Source of the DNA: Microthyrium microscopicum
Lineage: Eukaryota
Direction: 5' to 3'
DNA length: 64,000 nucleotides
Assembly (NCBI GenBank): GCA_010405405.1
Contig: MU004232.1
Coordinates: 1,135,481 to 1,199,480, forward strand
Positions within the stretch are counted from its first letter, which is position 1; every line of letters begins with the position of its first letter. Position numbers and translations under genes: made by a program. This document shows positions 11,871-61,432 of the stretch, piece after piece. Under the pieces are notes generated by a model. That model was not told the DNA's origin. It did not search any database and was given only the letters and a program-made list of their open reading frames with translations.

Positions 11871-12475
11871 ATGCATTTTCTATCAACTGTTCTTACCATT
11901 GGGCTGGCAAGCCTGGCAGTCTCTTCCCCCCTCGCCTTACCCGACACTATCGATCTTTCCAAGGTGAAACTTGTGAAAAGGGACGACGTCAAAAGCTCCC
12001 AGGACGGCAACGTCCCTCAAGAGTGCTCATTTTTGGGACCGCGATTGACATTCAACTACCAAGTGATCGATCTTGGGGGACACGGTACAGCTTGCATCGG
12101 CGCTCAAACTGGTGTGGGCGCGAACTGTCCAGCCTCTGGGGGCTGGACTGATCAGGATTATAGCGACATAGTCAGTGCAGTAAATCAACAGGTAAGAAAT
12201 GCTTCTTCAGCCAGGGCGAAGGCAGTCTCCGTACTTGGGTAGCTAACAATTCCCGAACTCAGGTCACGAAAGACGGTGCCTTGGAAACTTCCGAGGTTGG
12301 GGATTGGACTGTGAACTGGTTTCTGGGCAACTCAGCTGTCCCGGATCAAACATCCTATTCAGTGCTGTTCCAAACTGGCCTCGAATTTGGCGAATTGAAG
12401 GATGAGCAATATAAGAACTTTTTCTTCGGCTACAACAACAACTACATCGCAATAAGCCATAAACTTTTTTGCTAG
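11871..12475 (+). CDS. Small secreted protein with KR pro-peptide site and 4 Cys
   Basis: Signal peptide MHFLSTVLTIGLASLAVS; VKR site; intron 12192-12262 (GTAAGA...GCTAAC...CAG) joins in frame to VTKDGALETSEVGDWTVNW...KLFC*; TATAAA near 11769. Confidence 0.8.
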
Positions 12476-13281: not shown

Positions 13282-13494
13282 ATCGTGTATAACAAGTCTA
13301 CATGTCCGGCTACCAACCTGGCAGGAGGCCAACCGGTCGACAAGACAAATGAGGCGTTCCCGTCGAGGGCATCAATTCCCACTTGCTACGTTCTGCTATC
13401 AATTACTCTGATTCTCATTGCATTCAATGTTTCATAATACCTCTACGAACTCAGAAGGAAATAAACTAATCCACACCAGATCGTACCGAGAGGA

Positions 13495-13544
13495 GCCAAC
13501 GATGCCGATGGGGGCCAACGAAGCTGATGGGAACCCACGAAGCT
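13495..13544 (+). repeat. 19-bp imperfect tandem repeat, about 2.6 copies
   Basis: gccaacgatgccgatgggg / gccaacgaagctgatggga / acccacgaagct. Confidence 0.55.
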
Positions 13545-21117: not shown

Positions 21118-21159
21118 AGGCAGAGTCACCTTTAAGGCAGAGTCACCTTTAAGGCAGAG
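21118..21159 (+). repeat. Perfect 17-bp tandem repeat, 2.5 copies
   Basis: AGGCAGAGTCACCTTTA x2 followed by AGGCAGAG, about 265 bp upstream of the protease ATG. Confidence 0.85.
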
Positions 21160-47974: not shown

Positions 47975-48886
47975 TCAATCATTGAGACTTTCAAATGAAC
48001 TGATTGATCCGAATTCTAGTTCATCTTCCAGTTCATCTTCTGATTCATCTTCTGATTCATCCTCTGGTGCATCCTCAGATGGCTCGGACCGCCTGCTCTC
48101 GTTTTGGCTTTGCTCTTCTTTCAAATGAGTGATCAATCCCTCTGGTAATGGAGCCGATTGCAGACCATTGACTGCCCAAATTTCTGGCTTACCGCCGCAA
48201 CATCCGATTATGCTATTCATAAAAAGCACCAAGTCACTTGAACTTGACGTCATTTCAGTATTGCTAGCACTTGCCTGGCTCGGCCATTGCAATAGAAAGT
48301 AATTCGCAGAATCATTGACCCGATCCCCCAGCTCTGCAACGTAGTCTCTGTCAAGCTGCGATATGACGAGATCGTATAGCAAGCCCATCTTGATGCCATG
48401 TTCCTGAAGCTCATCGAATTCGGAGCTGATCTGCGCCCGCGGAGTTCTAGTTGAATAGACGCATGGGTAATAGTGCTCAAACTGGATCTCCCTCAGCTTG
48501 ATGGGTGGTTGTATAGGAAACATTCGGCGCCAGGATGCATCTGGTCTAAGAACAGCGTTTCGACGTTCTTTATCCACAAACCATTGCATGTCTTTAACTA
48601 CATCAGCACTTTGACTCATAGACGACTCGACCTCATCGTCGGAATCCTCGATATCAGTAATTGGGGTGAGAAAGAAGGGTGGAAATAGCTCCTTCAGAAG
48701 AGGGTTGAATCCGAATTCAGAATCAGGCCGTTGCTGGGAAGGCCTGAAGAAGAGTGCTTGCTGAAGAGTAGGAGAAGCACATATAATTGTTGTCCAGTGC
48801 TGGCACACTCGCTGAATTCGGAGAAGGTCACCGAGGTCTAACTTGACAAAGATCTCTGCCAAGATTTCGCATGGTAAGGAGTTCAT
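47975..48886 (-). CDS. F-box protein
   Basis: LPCEILAEIFVKLDLGDLLRIQRVCQHW...SPTLQQALFF; FNPLL and ASWRRMF motifs; acidic EDE repeat tail. Confidence 0.85.
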   Translation of the reverse strand: MNSLPCEILAEIFVKLDLGDLLRIQRVCQHWTTIICASPTLQQALFFRPSQQRPDSEFGFNPLLKELFPPFFLTPITDIEDSDDEVESSMSQSADVVKDMQWFVDKERRNAVLRPDASWRRMFPIQPPIKLREIQFEHYYPCVYSTRTPRAQISSEFDELQEHGIKMGLLYDLVISQLDRDYVAELGDRVNDSANYFLLQWPSQASASNTEMTSSSSDLVLFMNSIIGCCGGKPEIWAVNGLQSAPLPEGLITHLKEEQSQNESRRSEPSEDAPEDESEDESEDELEDELEFGSISSFESLND

Positions 48887-51218: not shown

Positions 51219-54203
51219 ATGAGTTCAAGATACATAACATTTGACCTTGGGCGTCGTGACCAAGCTGAATTCGCGGCATTATCTAAGCCAGAGGATGTAG
51301 CTCGCGATTTTGCGGCAGCCATATTTGAATTCTTTGTTGACCAAGATGGTGTCGTTTCAAGAAAACGACATGACTGTACAATGTATGATCTGATATATGG
51401 CTCAGAAGTTGACGCGATGAGTAGCAGACCGCAACCATCGTTTAGATGGATTCATATTCCGCATAATTGGGTACGTATATAGTCTATATCAATTGGCAGC
51501 AAGGGCAGCAAACTAATTCACCATCTCAGATAATATGGGTCAAGGTAGGCTTTCCTCCTACGCTTACCTATGAGTTATCATATACAAAGAATTGCTCACT
51601 TCACACCAGAAAATCATGACCAAGACTGACTTCGGTATGGATTTCTCGGCATTCGAGTATTATTGCGCATTCTATCAAACACAATGTCGCGCAATGGGTC
51701 TTGCGACTATGTCACCAACCTGTCAGCCCTTACCAGGAGAATTCCCTGCCTCGAGGGACGAATTGTACTCGAAGTTCATGGTGTTTGTCAGTATACTTTA
51801 CCACTCCAAGAAATGAATAATAACAAGAAACTAGATGCCTATGTTCGGTCTGAACTGCCATCCTCAAAGTGACGATGCAAGCAATGTAGGCAACTGTTGC
51901 TGTGCTGGAGCCCTCTTACAGTCCAGATTACAATTCTGGCACCTTAACTATTACACTCAAACAGGAGGGCAAAACCTTTATACGAGCACCGGACAGACTT
52001 TGGGCCAATATCTCAACTGTAATGGTCTATACAGGAGCTACCTGGAGCAGAACGAGATAGATGGTCGAAGAAGGACCCGAGACGAAGAGAATATTGGTCA
52101 AAATGCGGATCCTTTTGATCTTGAAGTTGATCGATTGTGGTTATGGAACGACTCCCGTAAGTCTTACCTCTCGCAGCCATGCTCGAATGTATTTTGATGT
52201 GTTAGATACTGTAATCACCGCCTTTCCCAGCTTCCCGACAGGCTCTCAATCTCTGTTGGATAAGATCCTTTGCTTCCTCGAAAAGCCCACGCAAGCACCT
52301 ATGAAGACAATCACAAATTTAATCATGTGCATCATTCGTCAAGGCTCTGGAATCTCAATGTTCCATACCCTCTATAATGATCAGCTTCTGAACGTGTTTG
52401 AATACTTGAACCGGGCTATAAGTACTATCGTAAGTAGAGATGTTGTATCACTGATGCTAGGCTGATCAAGTGGTCGTAGCGAGATGATCACTCCATACTA
52501 CAAAACCAATTTGAAGAACTCTGGAAGGTTAGCATTTCTACCTTTTGTTCTACTCTCCCCTGCTCCAAGGCGAATCCACTGTCAATTGTATGAGCTCTGA
52601 CTGATCTGCCCAGGACCTCAAATCCATCGAGCTACCAGATCCCGAGTATACACATAGTTTTAATCTGCAGGAATATGTCAAGAAAACCGATCAGATGTTT
52701 ATTGCACAAACAACGGATAAGAAGATCTTTGGACAAATCAATCCATCTAGCTGGAATACCAATGGAGAAATTCTGTTGATATCGCAGATTGACAACTTGG
52801 AACTACAAGTCAGCCACATCACAGCCCTAATGAATGACCAGTCTACACTAGTCAAGAAATTTGTCAAATTCATTTTCAGGCAGCAGAAGCTACAGGGCGA
52901 AAGCGATGAAGAAGCCTATGAGCGAGTTCTGGAAGAAGTTCACTATGATATCAGTAGAAGTCTCATTGAGCTGGGCCGATTAGACTTCCAAGCTAGTAGG
53001 GCCAGAGAAAAGGTAGGAAGTTTGGACTTTACATTTACTGAGGACTTTGCTAAGAGGCTCTAGATCGACTACCTCATCTCGATTAAGAACAGTCTGCGCA
53101 CAAGATGGGAAAGTGACATGAACTTAGATATGGCCACTTCAGCTGCAAAACAGAATCAGGCCATTCTAATATTCACCATTTTTACAATGATTTTTGTAAG
53201 TATACTTCATTTCAGTACCGTTGAAGTACTTTCTGATGATAGGAACCTTCCAGTTGCCATCGTCGTTCATAGCCGCGGTATTCACTATACCCATCCGCGA
53301 GTTTCCATCTTCGGCATCAGGATCCATTTCTCTTCCGCTGTCTTACGTAGTCAAGAATATGTGTAAGTGCAACCTTGCCTTGAAAAGAGTGCCACAGTCA
53401 ATAGCACCAAGGATGAGGGCAACACGTCCCAATGACTTCGCTAAAAATATACAGCTACATTCACCGTCGCGGTCGTGGTCCCGTCGATTGTCATTGCATT
53501 CAATTTGCAGAGGCTTTCGCGGTGGAAAGATAGAATCATAGCAATCTCACCCATGACCCAAAATGTCAGCAGTCGCATCTCGCTGATGAAGAGAAGCATT
53601 TGGAAGAAGTTGAGAGGCAAAAAGTACATCGATCAAGAGGCAGGTCGGGAAGAAGATATATGTCCACATATGCATGAAGAAGGAGTACTTGTTGATCCTC
53701 CCGAGCCTATAGGGCCAACCCAGCTTCCAGATCCTTCACGACGTAGTGGTCGCTCACCTCTTGTCGTAAGCCTTGAACAACAAGTCGCCGCTGCATCTTC
53801 ACAGACTGGAGCATACTCCCAGCAAGATGAGTCTTCCCGGCTAGATAGATCCTCACTTCAAGTCGGCGACTCACCACAGATAGGATTTCGACTACCACCA
53901 GAATTACTCCGACAAATGGCAGCATTTATAGCAACTTTGCCCTCGCGACCACCCGTCAGTTCTTCAGATCAAGTGGGGTCTGTACAAGCAGAGGATTCTG
54001 TACAGGCAGAAAGTTCTGTACAGGCAGAGGGTTCCTCACATCCAGGAGGGAAGTCTCAAGTTACTGCCTTTTCCCAGCAGGAAACTTCTTCTCAGCCCGA
54101 AGCAGCTTTACAGACGGATAATACAGTGGAGCCAAACGACACTTCACAGGCCGATTCTCCTACAGATGCTGCCGATATCAGCCTTGACTCCATTGTCAAT
54201 TGA
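51219..54203 (+). CDS. Fungal CorA-like membrane protein
   Basis: FRWIHIPHN, VDRLWLW, TVITAFP and QNQAILIFTIFTMIF-LPSSFIAAVF blocks followed by a second TM segment; many introns; an additional upstream exon is possible. Confidence 0.65.
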
Positions 54204-54528: not shown

Positions 54529-55950
54529 CTACAAGAAATAATCCGCGGCCGGCTTCTTCGCAGGCATCCCTCTAGAATCCTGCGGTGCAGCCTCAAACAC
54601 GCGATATCTTCTTCCAGGCCCAATCCGCTCCCAGGATTCCGGCCTTCTCTTGTACTCGTCCGGACCCTGGGCCGGCGTTGCGCCTGCCACTGCGCCTCGC
54701 GAATACCCATTCGCGCCCCCGTCTTCAAACAGTTCCAGTATACTGGCTACATTGCCACAGCGATAGCAGTAGTTAGGAGCGCTCCAGACAGTCACAATAC
54801 GAGCTTCGAACATCTCCTTGAAGCCTTCCATCACGAGTTGATGTGCGCGCGCAATGAGCGAGAGGTCGTTCCGCTGGTTGAACATCTTAACTATATCCTG
54901 GCCAAACAAGAACCCTGCGCCACGCGGACTTAAGCCCCAGCCGTCTATTTCGTCGGGGTCGCTCCAGAGAAGATCGCACATCGCGCCTTCGTGTGGGACT
55001 TCCTGTTTTCGGTCGAGCAGGCGGATCTTATCGATTGTCTCGACCAGTGGAGACAGGCCACCGTGAACGCAGAAGACAGCACCGCTCTCGGTGGATGAGC
55101 CATGGGCTGAGCCAGAGGCGGAAGTTCCAGGTGCGCCGTTGCGATCGGGTGTGGAGCTGGAGCGGGTGACGGGTGAAGATTGGAGGACCTGGGAGTCGGT
55201 GTGGATGTAATTGTCTCGGCGAATCCGACTAACGTGTTGAGTTTTCTCATTTACTATTTCAATTTCAACATCTTCATCGGATCTAATACTGGTGGAGTCG
55301 GAGAGAGCTGTTGTAGGGTCCAGGTCGAGTTGTGTAGTGGCACCGACGACTAAAGCTCCAAGTGCTAGATAGTCGAATACATCGCAGCAATATCGCCATA
55401 CATTGGCACTGCCGTATTTACGCATGCATTCATCGTAGAAACCATACACGGTGGTAATCTGGCGGGATTCGTGATTGCCCCGAATAAGTGTTATGCGATC
55501 TGGGTATCGTACTTTAAGGCATAGGAGGAGGAGGAATGATTCAAGAGAGTAAAATCCGCGGTCGACAAAGTCGCCTGTAATGTGTCAGCTTAGGTCCACC
55601 TAGTCAATCAGGAGACAAACCCATGAATAGATAATTGGTTTCTGGAACGTCACCGCCGACTCGAAACAGTTCCATTAGGTCGTGGAATTGCCCATGAATA
55701 TCGCCACATATCTACGAACGTTAGTTGGCGCAAAACGTAGGTAAGATGCGTAGAACATGCTGTAACTGGCGCATTCACAATGACCACATTTCCCTCCATT
55801 ATTAAAAGCTCGCGTGCTTTGTAACATACTTCTCTAACCTGGGCCTCTGGAATCGGGCGACAGGCCCGAAGCTGGGTAATTGCTCTGGTTCCGTTAGTCT
55901 CATACTTCCACATGGGATAGGACCCAGAAGTACCTGTCCAAGTCACTCAT
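54529..55950 (-). CDS. PPH3: Ser/Thr protein phosphatase 4 catalytic subunit
   Basis: [35 protein letters not shown] segment and C-terminal [22 protein letters not shown] matching PP4; three introns. Confidence 0.88.
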
Positions 55951-56565
55951 GGCGACAAGGTTGGTCGCAAGGACCAGAAATTTCGCAACAAAGGCGCTCG
56001 ATCAATTTTAAGTGTGGGTATGGCCTGTGAATACAGAAGTTGACGTGGTGAAGCAGCCCGAGCTTGTGCTTTAGCTGAGAATGAACCAACTACGTAGCTA
56101 ATGGTTTGTAAGAGTGTAATGTGAGGGGCGAATATGAATGGATGGAGTATGACTTTGGTAAATACAATGACGAAAACACTGGTACTGTTTTTGAGAATTG
56201 GATACCTAGGTATAGACAACGTCGAATATAAACACGAGAAGACGAAGAAGATGTTTAAGAGTTCAGCTCTAGAAAGGTGGGAGGCAAGAGCGATCCGCGG
56301 CCTGCACGTATTATTGCCGCGCGCCTGCTCTGACCAATCGCTGGGCAAGAACGCCTATCAAAATTCAACCTCATGCGAAGCCATCTTCATAGACTACGAC
56401 AATTCTCACACAGCTCAATCCAGTTCCGCAACTCCAGAAAGTGCTCAGAGTAAGCTCAATCTACTCAATTGAAATACTCAATGCTGACTTGGTAGTGGAG
56501 ATTACACAAAATGTACCATAGGCACACAACTTAGCTCTGTCACCGCCAGAACTCCGCGAGGAGCC

Positions 56566-56952
56566 ATGCCTCCAGCTCTACACCCTCGATCTCGCACCAC
56601 CCTCACTCTCTTTACCACAACACTTGCCCTCTCCTTCGCGGTGGTCGGACTACCCCACATACTACCATGCCCCGTTCCTCATAACAAACGCATGTACGCA
56701 GATGGCGAAATGCCAGGTCGAAGGAGGAAGAGGAAACCTCAGGAAGGAGAAACCCAGAGCGGCAAGACGGGCGAAAGAAACATACAAGAAACAATACCAG
56801 AAAGAGAATGCCCAGTGCCTAAACCTACAGGACTCGTGGGGCAGATTCTTGGATTTGAACAAAAGAACAAACCACTAGCTCCAATTGTAAAGGTAGAAGC
56901 ATACACAGGAAGGATACCCAAGGAGTCGAATTCTAAGAATAAGGAATCATAA
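56566..56952 (+). CDS. Small conserved fungal protein, COA2-like (possible cytochrome c oxidase assembly factor)
   Basis: MPPALHPRSR...LPHILPCPVP and RECPVPKPTGLVGQILGF motifs recalled from this family; probable 5'UTR intron near 56449-56495. Confidence 0.65.
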   Translation: MPPALHPRSRTTLTLFTTTLALSFAVVGLPHILPCPVPHNKRMYADGEMPGRRRKRKPQEGETQSGKTGERNIQETIPERECPVPKPTGLVGQILGFEQKNKPLAPIVKVEAYTGRIPKESNSKNKES

Positions 56953-57601
56953 CATTAACCAGACGTGGCCATGACCACGTTCTGTTGTACTATCAAGATC
57001 AAACAACACTTTCAAAGAAGATTTTTCTGGTACTGTGCTACTAACAACATATGGAAAATCCGAACATTGTGGATAAGCTGTCTACCAACCAACAGTCTCA
57101 ATCTTTTTTCGGAGAACTACAATCTACTACAGCGATACCGGAGGCTCACGCGGATGAAACGTTACAAAGAAGTAAAAATACCATGCTGGCCCTCTCGACC
57201 TCAAAGCTTCGTCCTTGACAGCTTATCGAAGTCACAGATGTGTTACACCAGTCAGCAACGACATGGTTCACGAACCCGCAAAACTCGTCGTACGAAATTC
57301 GCGAATAGAAGAATCTTATTGCATAACTGTTACTAGCAAGTAATAAAGAGCCTATCAGCGGTAAGGACAGACTTGTCAACCATCTCCATTTTCACACCTC
57401 ACCTCATCCCCACAACTTCGTATACAAAATGAAGAAATACAACGAAGAAGAAATCATGGCTGTACAACAGCCCTCACATGTTCCAATCGACCCAGCTATC
57501 GGCTGCACCCCAGTACCGTCCGCTTGCCATGCATATCCTCAAGAGCTAGGAAGACACGTGCGGTATTAGGTTTGCGCCGGCTCAACAATCGCCAGGCTCG
57601 C

Positions 57602-58381
57602 CTACTCTTCTTCGTAGTGCTTGACGGACCCAAGAGTTGTTCCTTCGTAGCTCTTCACAGATCCTAGAGGTGCTCCGTCAGTCGATGCCTCGTTGCGTCT
57701 GTAGTGATGATGATGGTGATGGTGGTGTCGACCACGATGATCTGCCGACGCATCCGAAGCGTCTGTAGCGTCTGTGGCATCAGTAGCTTCCGAGTTGGTC
57801 TCTGCTACATCGCGTCTGTAATGGTGTTTGTGAGGTTTGTGTGGATGGTGAGGGCCCTTCTTGTGTTCTTCAGAATCAACATCCGCGACATCTGCTTCGT
57901 CGCGCTTGTAGTGACCGTGGTGGGGCTTGTGGTGGGGCTTCTTCTTGTGCTCAGTCTCATCTACATCGCGTCTGTAATGGTGTTTGTGAGGTTTGTGCGA
58001 ATGGTGAGGAGGCTTCTTGTGCTCTTCTGCGTCGGTTTCGGCTACATCGCGTCTGTAATGGTGTTTGTGAGGTTTGTGTGGATGGTGCGGGCCCTTTTTG
58101 TGCTCTTCAGAGTCAACATCCGCAACATCTGCCTCGTCGCGCTTGTAGTGATGACCCTTGTGGGGCTTGTGAGGCTTGGGCTTGTGCTTGTGCTCAACCT
58201 CATCGACATCGCGTCTCCAGTGTCCATGGTGGTGGTGATGGTGGTGGCGTCCACGATAGTCTGCCGCGGCATCTGCGGCGACGTCTCGACGCTCAACGTC
58301 TGGGACGGCTACATCGGCCTCAGCAGGGGCGGCCAAGGCGCCGAGAGCAAAGAGAAGAACAGCTGGAAGAGCGATCTTCAT
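57602..58381 (-). CDS. Secreted Kex2-processed repeat protein (KEP): His-rich peptide precursor
   Basis: Signal peptide MKIALPAVLLFALGALA; eight KR/RR sites delimit seven acidic plus His/Lys/Pro-rich modules ending in Y or W; intronless; TATAAG on the minus strand near 58488. Confidence 0.9.
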   Translation of the reverse strand: MKIALPAVLLFALGALAAPAEADVAVPDVERRDVAADAAADYRGRHHHHHHHGHWRRDVDEVEHKHKPKPHKPHKGHHYKRDEADVADVDSEEHKKGPHHPHKPHKHHYRRDVAETDAEEHKKPPHHSHKPHKHHYRRDVDETEHKKKPHHKPHHGHYKRDEADVADVDSEEHKKGPHHPHKPHKHHYRRDVAETNSEATDATDATDASDASADHRGRHHHHHHHHYRRNEASTDGAPLGSVKSYEGTTLGSVKHYEEE

Positions 58382-60688
58382 GATGGTCGTTGATATCCGA
58401 ATGATTGATGAGTGTTTGGTTATTGCTCTGATCAGAAAGAGTGAGCTGGTTGAGAATATAATCCGGCGGGTCTGACTTGGTTCTTATAGACGTCAAGTCT
58501 ACGTTCTCCGAGGGAGCCTTTTGGTATCAATTCCGTTCCCAGCTTGCTAGAATACCCATCAAAGATGCTGTGTAAGCAGACGGCATTCACGTACCCGCCG
58601 CCGACTCTACTCGTTTCCAGGATTCTCCCACAACAATATCATTCAGCTGACGGTGACATCTCTTGAAGCGTCTCACGATGCACGGCTACGTACTTTGGAT
58701 CAGCATCAATACGTCTTGCCCATGAACGTATACAGACGTATCCGTGGTGCCGAAGCGAGAGTTCGTCGTGCAAAGACGGGTACAAGACTGACGAAATGCA
58801 AAACGTCTTCAACAAGGGGTATGGAAATGTCGGCACGCAATGTCGAAATATGCACCGACTGCTGACTTGTTGAGTTGATGACGAGAATTTGGGAAGGTTG
58901 GTTGGAGAGTATCCATTCGACAGGCGATATCAAAAGCATCTAAAAACGAATTTGTGGAGAAGCTGTTTCGCCTTTCAAGACTTATTGTTCTTCTTGGCAA
59001 AAGCTAGAGAACTTGAAAAGGCGCTGGAAGCAAAGACACGCGAAGATCGTATTGCTTAGGAAGGACGAAGTAACTTTGATGTTCTCTAGGTACTTGTCTT
59101 TGCAACACCGGCAGACAGGTTGATAGCTGTCGATTTCGTGCCACAGCATATGCCGTTGCAGCACCACTGATGAAGTGATGCAAAGAAGCTTACGGATGAT
59201 GCAAGAGAAAAGTTTGAAATGCAGGTACCTCTATCGTCCTGCTGTCAGAGTGCGTGAACTACAGGTTCTTCAGCAACGCGATTTCGATCTAGCTATACAG
59301 TTTTCAACCTCAAGGATCTCTTCCTACTCTGATAATGAGAATTTGAAACACCTTTGAAGAGACATGCTTCCATTTAATCTGAATACAAATTTGATTGATA
59401 CGATTCAGACAATCTATCATCAACAACTACTTCTCATTACGAAATCAAATGGTGTTTGCAGACACACCACATGCGCAGTGCATCTTCAAAACCATCTCTC
59501 CCGTAACACGAAAACTCCAACATCTCAGCATCAACCTCATATCCCTACAAATCCACCCAACGGACCTACCGTCCGTGATACTAACCTCAAAGACCAAGCA
59601 AAGTCTCCATTTTTTTGCTCATAGCTCATGTCAAGGTCGTCATGAGCTTGATCTCTCTGTGTATCTACCTCTCGTATTGGGGCAAACCTACAGAGCTGTG
59701 GAGACGATCGGTTTTCGGGAACACAAAGTGAGGAGAAATCATGTACCTAGACAAGCGCTGATGTAAGAACTGGATATAACAAATCGCAAAAACATCTCGA
59801 TCAACTGATGTTGCGATGTGGTTCTGTATCACGATGCGGCCACGAGCTTAGCCACGAGAGTTGAAGATTCGCCTTTTGAGGGGAAATGTTTCGAAATACA
59901 CGAGATTTAGTTCATTTTGCAGTGATACAGGACTGGAGAAATGCTAAATATAGAAGTGTTGGGTGTGTAGCGTTGTGGCTATCATAACTACTTGCTGATC
60001 TTTAGTGCTTGATAGAAGCTATAGCTGGGATGTGGAGAAAGAAGTGTTTGTCAATGGAGGTATATGGCAAATGGTCAGCATGCCTTGGTCATACCCTAAA
60101 TGGCTTATGGTTACGGATTGGACGGGATGTTATCAACAGTCTATTCATATTCACCATCTGCTCTACTTCTGGGAATATTGACGAGCTGGAGGTCAAGCCG
60201 AATAAGTTTGAGCTACTCAAGGCTACTATGTATTTACCTAGCTGTCGGGCAGAAAAGGTCCAGTGCGACTTCAGTGTAGCCGTTTCTCATACTCGAGTTC
60301 CAACGTGACAATGTATGCCTACGCGGAATGTGGGTCGTGGTTGGACTGCTCAGAACTCTTGGAATCGAAGATCAAGAAGTTATGATTTTCGAAGGACTTT
60401 TCTTTACGACAGACATGTTGCAAATACCGAGGGAAGAGGGCCAATTGAATACCTAGCGTTGTACTATAACCTGAGCAATTATTGCCCTACGCCATTTGGT
60501 CTCTCATCTATATTGAGAAGCTCGTTTTGAACCAGCAGTGTAATATGTTGAGAAATTATTCCGTCGGTTTGCCGAGACCGACACGAATAGCTTACAGCTT
60601 ACCTTAGCTAAGAATAAATCATAAATCTTTGACACTACTTCAAAAAGTGTTTGAAATCACCACGCTCATTACCAGAAGTGTACTCACC

Positions 60689-61432
60689 ATGGCACGCCTC
60701 ACTCTAGCGCTCTACGCGCTCCTCTCTGCCCTCAACCTCACATCCGCCGCAACAATCTACCTATGCGGCGACTCAACCATGGCCCGGGGCAACGGCAAAA
60801 TCGACGGCTGGGGCCAGCATCTCGGTCCTCTAATGACCATCCCCGTAGTCAACAAAGCCATCGGCGGACGCTCAGCACGCAGCTACACAGTAGAAAAGCG
60901 TTTCGATGAAGTCGCTTCCGCCGTAAAACCCGGAGACTACGTAGTAATTGAATTCGGACACAACGATGGCGGCGGGATCCAAAAGAACGACAATGGGCGC
61001 GCAGACTGTCCGGGTACGGGCAAGGAGACGTGCCAGACGACAAATGCAAAGGGGAATAGGGAGACGGTGTTGACGTTCCAGGCGTATTTGGTGAATGCGG
61101 GCAAGCAGATGATTGGGAAGGGGGCGAAGGTGGTGTTTAGTAGTATGACGCCGAATAATGTTTGTGAGGGTGGGAGTTGTAAATATAGTGGGAGTCGATT
61201 TGGGGATATGGCGAAGGCGGCTGCGAAGGAGGTGGGTGAGGGTGCTAGTTATGTGGATCATGGAGGCGCAACGGGGCAGGAGTATATTAAGATGGGGAGT
61301 TCGAAGGTAAATGCGCTGTTTCCGCAGGATCATACACATACATCTCCGGCTGGGGCCAAGGTGGTTGCAGAGACATTTGTGAAAGCAGTGGTGGCGGAGA
61401 GGAATGTGTTGGCTCAGTTTGTTAAGAAGTAA
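60689..61432 (+). CDS. Rhamnogalacturonan acetylesterase (CE12, SGNH/GDSL)
   Basis: Signal peptide; GDSTMA, NKAIGGRSARSY, EFGHNDGG and DHTHTSPAGA motifs. Confidence 0.93.
   Translation: MARLTLALYALLSALNLTSAATIYLCGDSTMARGNGKIDGWGQHLGPLMTIPVVNKAIGGRSARSYTVEKRFDEVASAVKPGDYVVIEFGHNDGGGIQKNDNGRADCPGTGKETCQTTNAKGNRETVLTFQAYLVNAGKQMIGKGAKVVFSSMTPNNVCEGGSCKYSGSRFGDMAKAAAKEVGEGASYVDHGGATGQEYIKMGSSKVNALFPQDHTHTSPAGAKVVAETFVKAVVAERNVLAQFVKK

Follow-up and report, generated by a model that had tools for sequence, protein, structure and literature searches.

This locus raises the question of whether one reading frame, in which acidic and histidine-rich blocks alternate between dibasic sites, is a gene at all, and if so what peptides it would release and what these peptides would do. 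The window is the whole 64,000-nucleotide stretch of Microthyrium microscopicum DNA that was analysed, and the polypeptide translated from the frame is called P0001 below. A first-pass annotation of the same DNA had described it as a secreted Kex2-type repeat precursor of seven peptides, and its individual claims are taken up where the results bear on them.

The reading frame, its modules and its probable transcription

The frame is uninterrupted and consists of a single exon on the minus strand, and its translation contains 51 His (about 50 of 259 residues had been estimated before), 26 Lys, 18 Pro, 48 Asp plus Glu, and no Cys. Among the 121 stop-to-stop frames of at least 100 aa in the window, the frame of P0001 ranks at the top for His fraction, with 0.177 in comparison to 0.117 for the runner-up. 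The N-terminus is signal-like, with Lys at position 2, a hydrophobic core (9-residue hydropathy up to 2.8) and small residues at -3/-1, and the predicted signal cut site is uncertain, since several positions from aa 14 to aa 22 fit. The ATG has an A at its -3 position. The coordinates of all features are presented in Table 1.

Table 1. Features of the P0001 gene, with positions counted in the window
Feature	Position	Strand	Basis
Prepro-polypeptide P0001, 259 aa	57602..58381	-	ORF translation; synonymous-only repeat divergence; no joint inside
Signal peptide, predicted, about aa 1-17	58331..58381	-	Hydropathy; crude -3/-1 rule
Pro region, short and acidic, RR at its end	58286..58330	-	Sequence splitting at [KR]R
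Module 1: 9-aa acidic spacer, then YRGR, His7 tract, GHW	58217..58285	-	
Module 2: 6-aa acidic spacer; 16-aa His/Lys/Pro core, HHY end	58145..58210	-	
Module 3: 12-aa acidic spacer; 16-aa core; protein identical to module 6	58055..58138	-	
Module 4: 9-aa acidic spacer; 16-aa core	57974..58048	-	
Module 5: 6-aa acidic spacer; 14-aa core; paralogue of module 2	57908..57967	-	
Module 6: copy of module 3 with six synonymous differences	57818..57901	-	
Module 7: 24-aa Ser/Thr/Asp/Ala spacer, then HRGR, His8 tract, Y; paralogue of module 1	57701..57811	-	
C-terminal acidic tail, 30 aa, LGSVK[SH]YE twice, without a dibasic site	57605..57694	-	
TATA-like element TATAAG, 107 bases 5' of the ATG	58483..58488	-	Pattern match only

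Splitting of the translation at [KR]R gave a 32-aa signal/pro piece, seven modules of 20-37 aa with six distinct sequences, and the tail, which reproduced exactly the earlier layout of seven modules between KR/RR sites, one of them present twice, followed by two copies of LGSVK[SH]YE. All seven modules are closed by the junction H[YW][KR]R[DN], with Tyr as the last residue in six of them, while among 100,000 composition-preserving shuffles a single such junction was seen in 267 and more than one in none. The shorter pattern [KR]R[DEN] occurs 8 times in P0001 in comparison to a maximum of 5 in shuffles. The tail may be a separate product; its repeat shows a pN/pS of 0.26 on 8 codons, with synonymous divergence exceeding non-synonymous divergence per site.

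The two identical modules offer a view of the selection acting on the frame. Of 90 bases, 6 distinguish module 3 from module 6, and all six differences are synonymous with 0 non-synonymous changes, a pattern with a probability of 4.5e-5 when all changes are taken as equally likely and 1.4e-3 when all are taken as transitions. Because modules that encode the same peptide differ by synonymous changes alone, the peptide frame is under selection, and judged by its repeats the P0001 ORF is a real gene. The pN/pS was 0.14 for modules 1 and 7 and 1.66 for modules 2 and 5 (a short gapped alignment of 22 codons); selection across the modules is thus not uniform, as the latter pair differs mainly at non-synonymous sites. 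The array looks as if a unit comprising modules 2 and 3 and the beginning of module 4 had been duplicated, with a pair of related poly-His modules enclosing it. An antisense ORF at 57707-58393 (+) was also considered as a gene and rejected as a shadow of P0001, because the changes between modules 3 and 6 alter five of its residues.

For transcription we used one sequencing run, X1, whose type was guessed as RNA and which may share the source of the window. Of its 16 joints, 15 were examined; these lie in neighbouring genes and 11 of them are GT..AG, so that the run holds spliced transcripts. Its contigs span 56501-57833 and 58058-60180, and none of the same 15 of 16 joints falls within the P0001 ORF. 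Depth was present in 30 of 30 bins, the intergenic ones included, and the contigs carry no strand or level, so that these reads point only weakly to expression of the P0001 gene. The contig at 58058-60180 extends from inside the gene for 1.8 kb into upstream DNA where Pfam recognises no frame, and it could be a long UTR, a non-coding transcript or DNA carry-over. No full zinc-responsive element was found in the 2.3 kb upstream of the ORF; one short ZafA-like and one CuRE-like match, either of which may be a chance occurrence, lie about 1.2 kb off.

Relatives and the class of the precursor

The searches for relatives were blank throughout. With phmmer at E of 0.001 or less, no relative of P0001 was found among 8,000 word-sharing candidates of 142-454 aa from a collection of 5.8 billion proteins, nor in a second collection of 1.84 billion representatives, and its first 160 codons gave nothing at E of 10 or less in 3,304 candidates of 88-280 aa from the larger collection. 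Simulated collinear variants of P0001 were recovered in 50 of 50 cases at 46% identity and in 37 of 50 at 37%, and a collinear relative with more than about 45% identity would not have escaped detection. Because P0001 itself is missing from the 5.8-billion collection (2 of 8 window proteins are present), fungal coverage there is partial and repeats assemble poorly, the blank search is to be read as "not found" and not as "absent".

A peptide-pattern scan of metagenomes produced 580 matches, 0 of which were confirmed by tblastn; low-complexity filtering would reduce even the self-match of P0001 to 89 bits. A three-junction DNA pattern, which matches 4 times in the window and 0 times in shuffles, was found at 2 viral-contig and 81 metagenome loci, and 0 of these 83 had an unfiltered tblastn match at E 0.01. 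Thirteen frames with at least two H-aromatic-[KR]R-[DEN] junctions were rejected by eye, being short tandem repeats or Arg-rich off-frame reads with no signal peptide. Two metagenome loci, L022:2296-2448 (-) and L041:19-321 (-), carry 11-codon tandem repeats in which one frame reads as His/Cys/Tyr units split by RR-D; both sit at the edges of contigs, lack a signal peptide and are partly interrupted by stops, and they are probably off-frame.

Nor did P0001 match a characterised family in the domain and structure collections, in line with the orphan status given to it in the first-pass annotation. Pfam gave no family and nothing relevant up to E = 1, and the sequences of the PDB gave weak matches alone (best E 0.066), which lie almost without exception at the ends of chains and which we read as His-tags. 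The ESM Atlas contains P0001 and gives it a disordered model (pLDDT 0.37), with no named match and with all structure matches at TM below 0.5; three Ascomycota clusters at 0.81, 0.77 and 0.76 fall under the bar of 0.9 and serve as leads only. The supplement tables of Umemura, which list accessions without sequences, have no Microthyrium entry, and no description of a poly-His fungal KEP was found in the literature searched, most subscription papers being outside its reach.

The class itself is well described. As far as the excerpts of the two sources go, a KEP is defined by a signal peptide and by KR/RR sites that set off three or more repeats of 8-100 aa, hence four or more fragments (Umemura 2020, PMC7329392; Le Marquer 2019, PMC6339444), with the repeats making up at least 15% of the protein (PMC6339444). 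P0001 has 8 sites, 9 fragments and 7 modules of 20-37 aa, as counted without the authors' repeat-scoring scripts, and the modules take up aa 33-229 of 259. By these sequence measures, with the signal peptide a predicted one, P0001 is a KEP of the stand-alone type and an orphan. Its orphan status is ordinary, as 2,560 of the 7,878 KEPs counted by Umemura are without homologues, and 78% of KEPs have no linked DUF3328 (both from the consulted part of PMC7329392). Like other stand-alone KEPs, P0001 has several repeat subtypes in one precursor, repeats that fill most of the protein and no linked DUF3328 seen; unlike them, it consists of 20% His, carries His7 and His8 tracts, keeps strictly to acidic and basic blocks and has no homologue found. 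HH is given for 3.9% of the repeats of non-DUF3328 KEPs, and a di-His motif with Pro marks the widespread types G-3 and G-8, DUF3328-linked in 57 of 64 and 45 of 49 cases, respectively (PMC7329392, in excerpt). These two types (Umemura 2020) and the SPPHKT motif (Le Marquer 2019) share with P0001 the use of His/Pro(/Lys) in Ascomycota KEP repeats, but P0001 is, as far as seen, neither DUF3328-linked nor widespread, and it is set apart from G-3 and G-8 by their descriptions and not by their sequences.

Probable processing and possible roles of the peptides

The signal-like N-terminus and the eight [KR]R sites agree, at the level of sequence, with the secreted Kex2-type precursor proposed before, and secretion of P0001 with cleavage by Kex2 and Kex1 into linear peptides is very probable. 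The precursor would enter the ER, Kex2 would cut after each KR/RR and Kex1 would remove the basic pair, following the pathway outlined in PMC6339444; seven peptides of 20-37 residues with His-Tyr or His-Trp ends, plus the tail, would then be released. Without modification, the computed masses of the six distinct modules are 2689.20, 2678.36, 3275.52 (modules 3 and 6), 2990.43, 2455.19 and 4107.73 Da, and those of their cores 1889.87, 1992.08, 2001.05 (modules 3 and 6), 2031.06, 1766.93 and 1783.83 Da.

The seven modules are built alike. In each of them every Asp/Glu stands N-terminal to every Lys/Arg/His, which bears out the earlier description of an acidic N-half and a His/Lys/Pro C-half with an H-[YW] end; such an order would arise by chance with a probability of 1e-5 to 4e-3 per module, the modules not being independent. 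The basic cores are near constant in length (13-16 residues, with 6-9 His and 2-5 Lys/Arg), while the spacers vary from 6 to 24 residues, and this difference suggests a core that does the work and a spacer that serves as a mask or a handle. The whole-module net charge was -5.7 to +1.2 at pH 7.4 and +3.2 to +7.1 at pH 5 in a simple model with assumed pKa values, so the arithmetic holds for the earlier idea that the acidic halves may mask the cationic cores. The acidic spacer would neutralise the core in transit and would be lost later, through aminopeptidases or a second cut at KK/KKK/RGR, leaving His/Lys/Pro cores of 9-16 residues; we put the chances of such neutralisation and later removal at about even.

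Some details bear on the removal of the spacer. A second basic motif (KK, KKK or RGR) starts from core position 2 in six of the seven modules, module 2 having K-H-K, a feature that the first-pass annotation did not mention; it suggests that trimming follows Kex2 and leaves end products of less than module length. Pro directly follows two of the KK-type motifs, and KK is reported in the consulted part of PMC6339444 to be cut by Kex2 less often than KR/RR. Trimming by Ste13 was considered and rejected: its X-Ala/X-Pro signature occurs at 0 of the 8 post-Kex2 N-termini of P0001, so that Ste13 cannot begin on the spacers. In the excerpt of PMC9769878, cuts after single Arg were seen in Coprinopsis, and the loss of an acidic N-terminal piece has a precedent there in that one Coprinopsis KEP yielded both DDDPEGPPAPSW and GPPAPSW.

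We assign a probability of roughly 45% to the reading in which the products are linear, histatin-like peptides with a metal-based role. Poly-His binds Ni, Zn and Cu, and as a matter of chemistry such binding by the His7-8 tracts of modules 1 and 7 is near certain. Through several imidazoles the cores would bind Cu, Zn or Ni, below about pH 6 they would acquire a strong positive charge, and outside the cell they could act in competition or in metal buffering on the fungal substrate. Histatins, which occur in human saliva, are cationic His-rich peptides with Cu/Ni and Zn sites, and their 14-residue active fragment ends in Tyr (PMC7409060, in part). The P0001 peptides resemble them in being short and His/Lys-rich with a Tyr end, and HHSH is common to the histatin fragment and module 4; they differ in being fungal and Pro-rich, with acidic spacers and a multi-core Kex2 precursor. 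No significant match was obtained in Pfam, the PDB sequences or the protein collections, the likeness being compositional, and we infer that histatins and P0001 are unrelated by descent. The metal role is weakened by the lack of a full zinc-responsive element in the upstream region and by the results for KEP peptides assayed so far: as given in the consulted part of PMC9769878, synthetic Coprinopsis KEP peptides were not antibacterial, and knocking out kep genes produced no phenotype.

Other roles have to be weighed against the metal-based one. The peptides could be structural or adhesive components of the wall, the matrix or the surface of the fruiting body, assembling by themselves upon a pH shift or with Zn, or cross-linked between His and catechol via the terminal His-Tyr. 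The KEP Rep1 of Ustilago maydis, whose 34-53-aa products form wall amyloids for attachment (PMC3133707, in part), resembles what is predicted for P0001 in that its linear products are secreted, have about the same size and are not trimmed by Ste13, and squid HBPs and Nereis NVJP-1, which are His-rich with Tyr, show pH- or Zn-triggered assembly and His-catechol cross-linking (PMC9999432, in part). The modules are also blocky polyampholytes near neutral at pH 7.4, and variable cores of like composition suit a material better than a receptor ligand. Rep1 repellents, however, are amphipathic amyloid formers, while the P0001 cores are polar and predicted to be disordered; being rich in Pro and Lys, with few Gly or hydrophobic residues and one aromatic each, they are unlike the HBP pentapeptides, and short pieces would be expected in general to weaken coacervation. 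A structural role is unlikely in our judgement. A role in signalling, with pheromone- or hormone-like peptides acting on a fungal receptor and an incidental His content, would account for the layout of dibasic site, acidic spacer and core and for the linear products, which are shared with ascomycete alpha-pheromone precursors, as well as for the exact conservation of modules 3 and 6, and the constant aromatic C-terminus is reminiscent of the agaricomycete KEP cores that end in Trp (PMC9769878, in excerpt). We give it little credence: the spacers do not begin with the X-Ala/X-Pro dipeptides of Ste13, Pfam finds no MF_alpha in P0001, the two Cys and the PYGxPxG motif described for Dothideomycete alpha pheromones (PMC6339444, in excerpt) are both missing, and six different, heterogeneous His-rich cores with His7-8 tracts and no pheromone motif are hard to fit to one receptor.

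Cyclic products of the dikaritin type are improbable. For such products a DUF3328 (UstYa) gene is expected within about 15 genes; here they would call for an oxidase gene that is unlinked or lies beyond the window, with the spacer as a recognition sequence and the terminal Tyr or Trp cross-linked with His. Dikaritin cyclisation goes through Tyr, according to the consulted part of PMC7329392, and Tyr ends six of the seven modules. The first-pass annotation had preferred linear products on the ground that no DUF3328 or tyrosinase gene is nearby; no such gene was detected by Pfam (PF11807 and tyrosinase) in 258 of the 360 window frames of at least 65 aa, from about 19.8 kb to the end, a scan that took in about 15 genes to the left and three to the right. 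Its case is nevertheless weaker than stated, because three right-hand genes alone are visible and the di-His KEP types are mostly DUF3328-linked. The HxxHC motif had five matches in six frames, each at least 14.9 kb from the P0001 gene, whereas DUF3328 genes are on average 3.09 genes away from their KEP and most often adjacent (PMC7329392, in excerpt), and the nearest genes here encode a COA2-like protein, a phosphatase, an acetylesterase, a BTB protein and an MCM subunit. The cores of 13-16 aa are moreover long and heterogeneous in comparison to the dikaritin cores of 4-6 residues. P0001 might also stay uncut, as an intact disordered secreted His-rich protein or the product of a weakly expressed repeat gene, in agreement with X1 contigs that cover the gene and every intergenic bin and with homologues that were not found; the odds of this are poor, given that eight regular [KR]R sites with Asp or Asn after each are far beyond chance and that the gene shows synonymous-only divergence, a TATA-like element and a suitable start context.

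P0001 is, on its sequence, an addition to the known KEP class with unusual and readily testable chemistry, seen as one orphan gene, probably expressed, in one genome. Most of the approximately 7,900 catalogued KEPs are without a known function, and the chemistry of P0001 predicts a cheap and decisive test, as the natural His7-8 tracts permit one-step IMAC capture and all products are short enough for synthesis. If metal binding has a biological role, fungi would have a way of competing for metals or defending themselves with ribosomal peptides, and orphan KEPs would gain a functional class. It is doubtful whether P0001 stands for a recurring fungal class of linear, histatin-like, His-rich peptides with His-aromatic ends, many per precursor and with an acid mask removed after Kex2; such a class would supply ribosomal Cu/Zn-binding agents or pH-switched antimicrobials.

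Neighbouring genes and other observations in the window

The genes on the left encode a COA2-like protein, a calcineurin-like phosphatase, a weakly CorA-like multi-exon product, a Ras-family GTPase, an F-box protein, Rpn13, L6e, an NBP35-type NTPase, a DUF3712 protein, two proteins without a firm family, a GH43 protein, an MFS transporter and an aspartyl protease. A rhamnogalacturonan acetylesterase, the BTB protein and the MCM subunit follow on the right, where the window ends 5.6 kb past the P0001 gene. As far as can be seen, with the right side short, the locus is no biosynthetic cluster.

The acetylesterase at 60689-61432 (+) is a secreted one, arranged head-to-head with the P0001 gene at a distance of 2.3 kb; its best named relatives come from filamentous ascomycetes with up to 59% identity, and metagenome proteins reach 68%, so that the host belongs to a thinly sampled part of the ascomycetes. 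The cationic cores could bind pectin, and co-regulation with the acetylesterase is unsupported. The CorA-like gene, 3.4 kb from the P0001 gene with two genes between, lies at 51219-54203 (+); when its exons are put together by the joints, a protein of 808 aa results, in which two membrane helices are predicted near aa 511-580, the CorA-like match is weak (E 0.03), and a 13-base mini-exon is found at 51530-51542. In the phosphatase gene a CT..GC joint at 55711-55761 (-) represents a GC-AG intron on the minus strand. At 11871-12242 (+) lies the start of an ORF that resembles a small secreted protein in having several Cys and a KR pro-site. Short tandem repeats were located by TRF at 2338-2435, 13492-13544, 21118-21159, 48014-48080 and 53975-54034.
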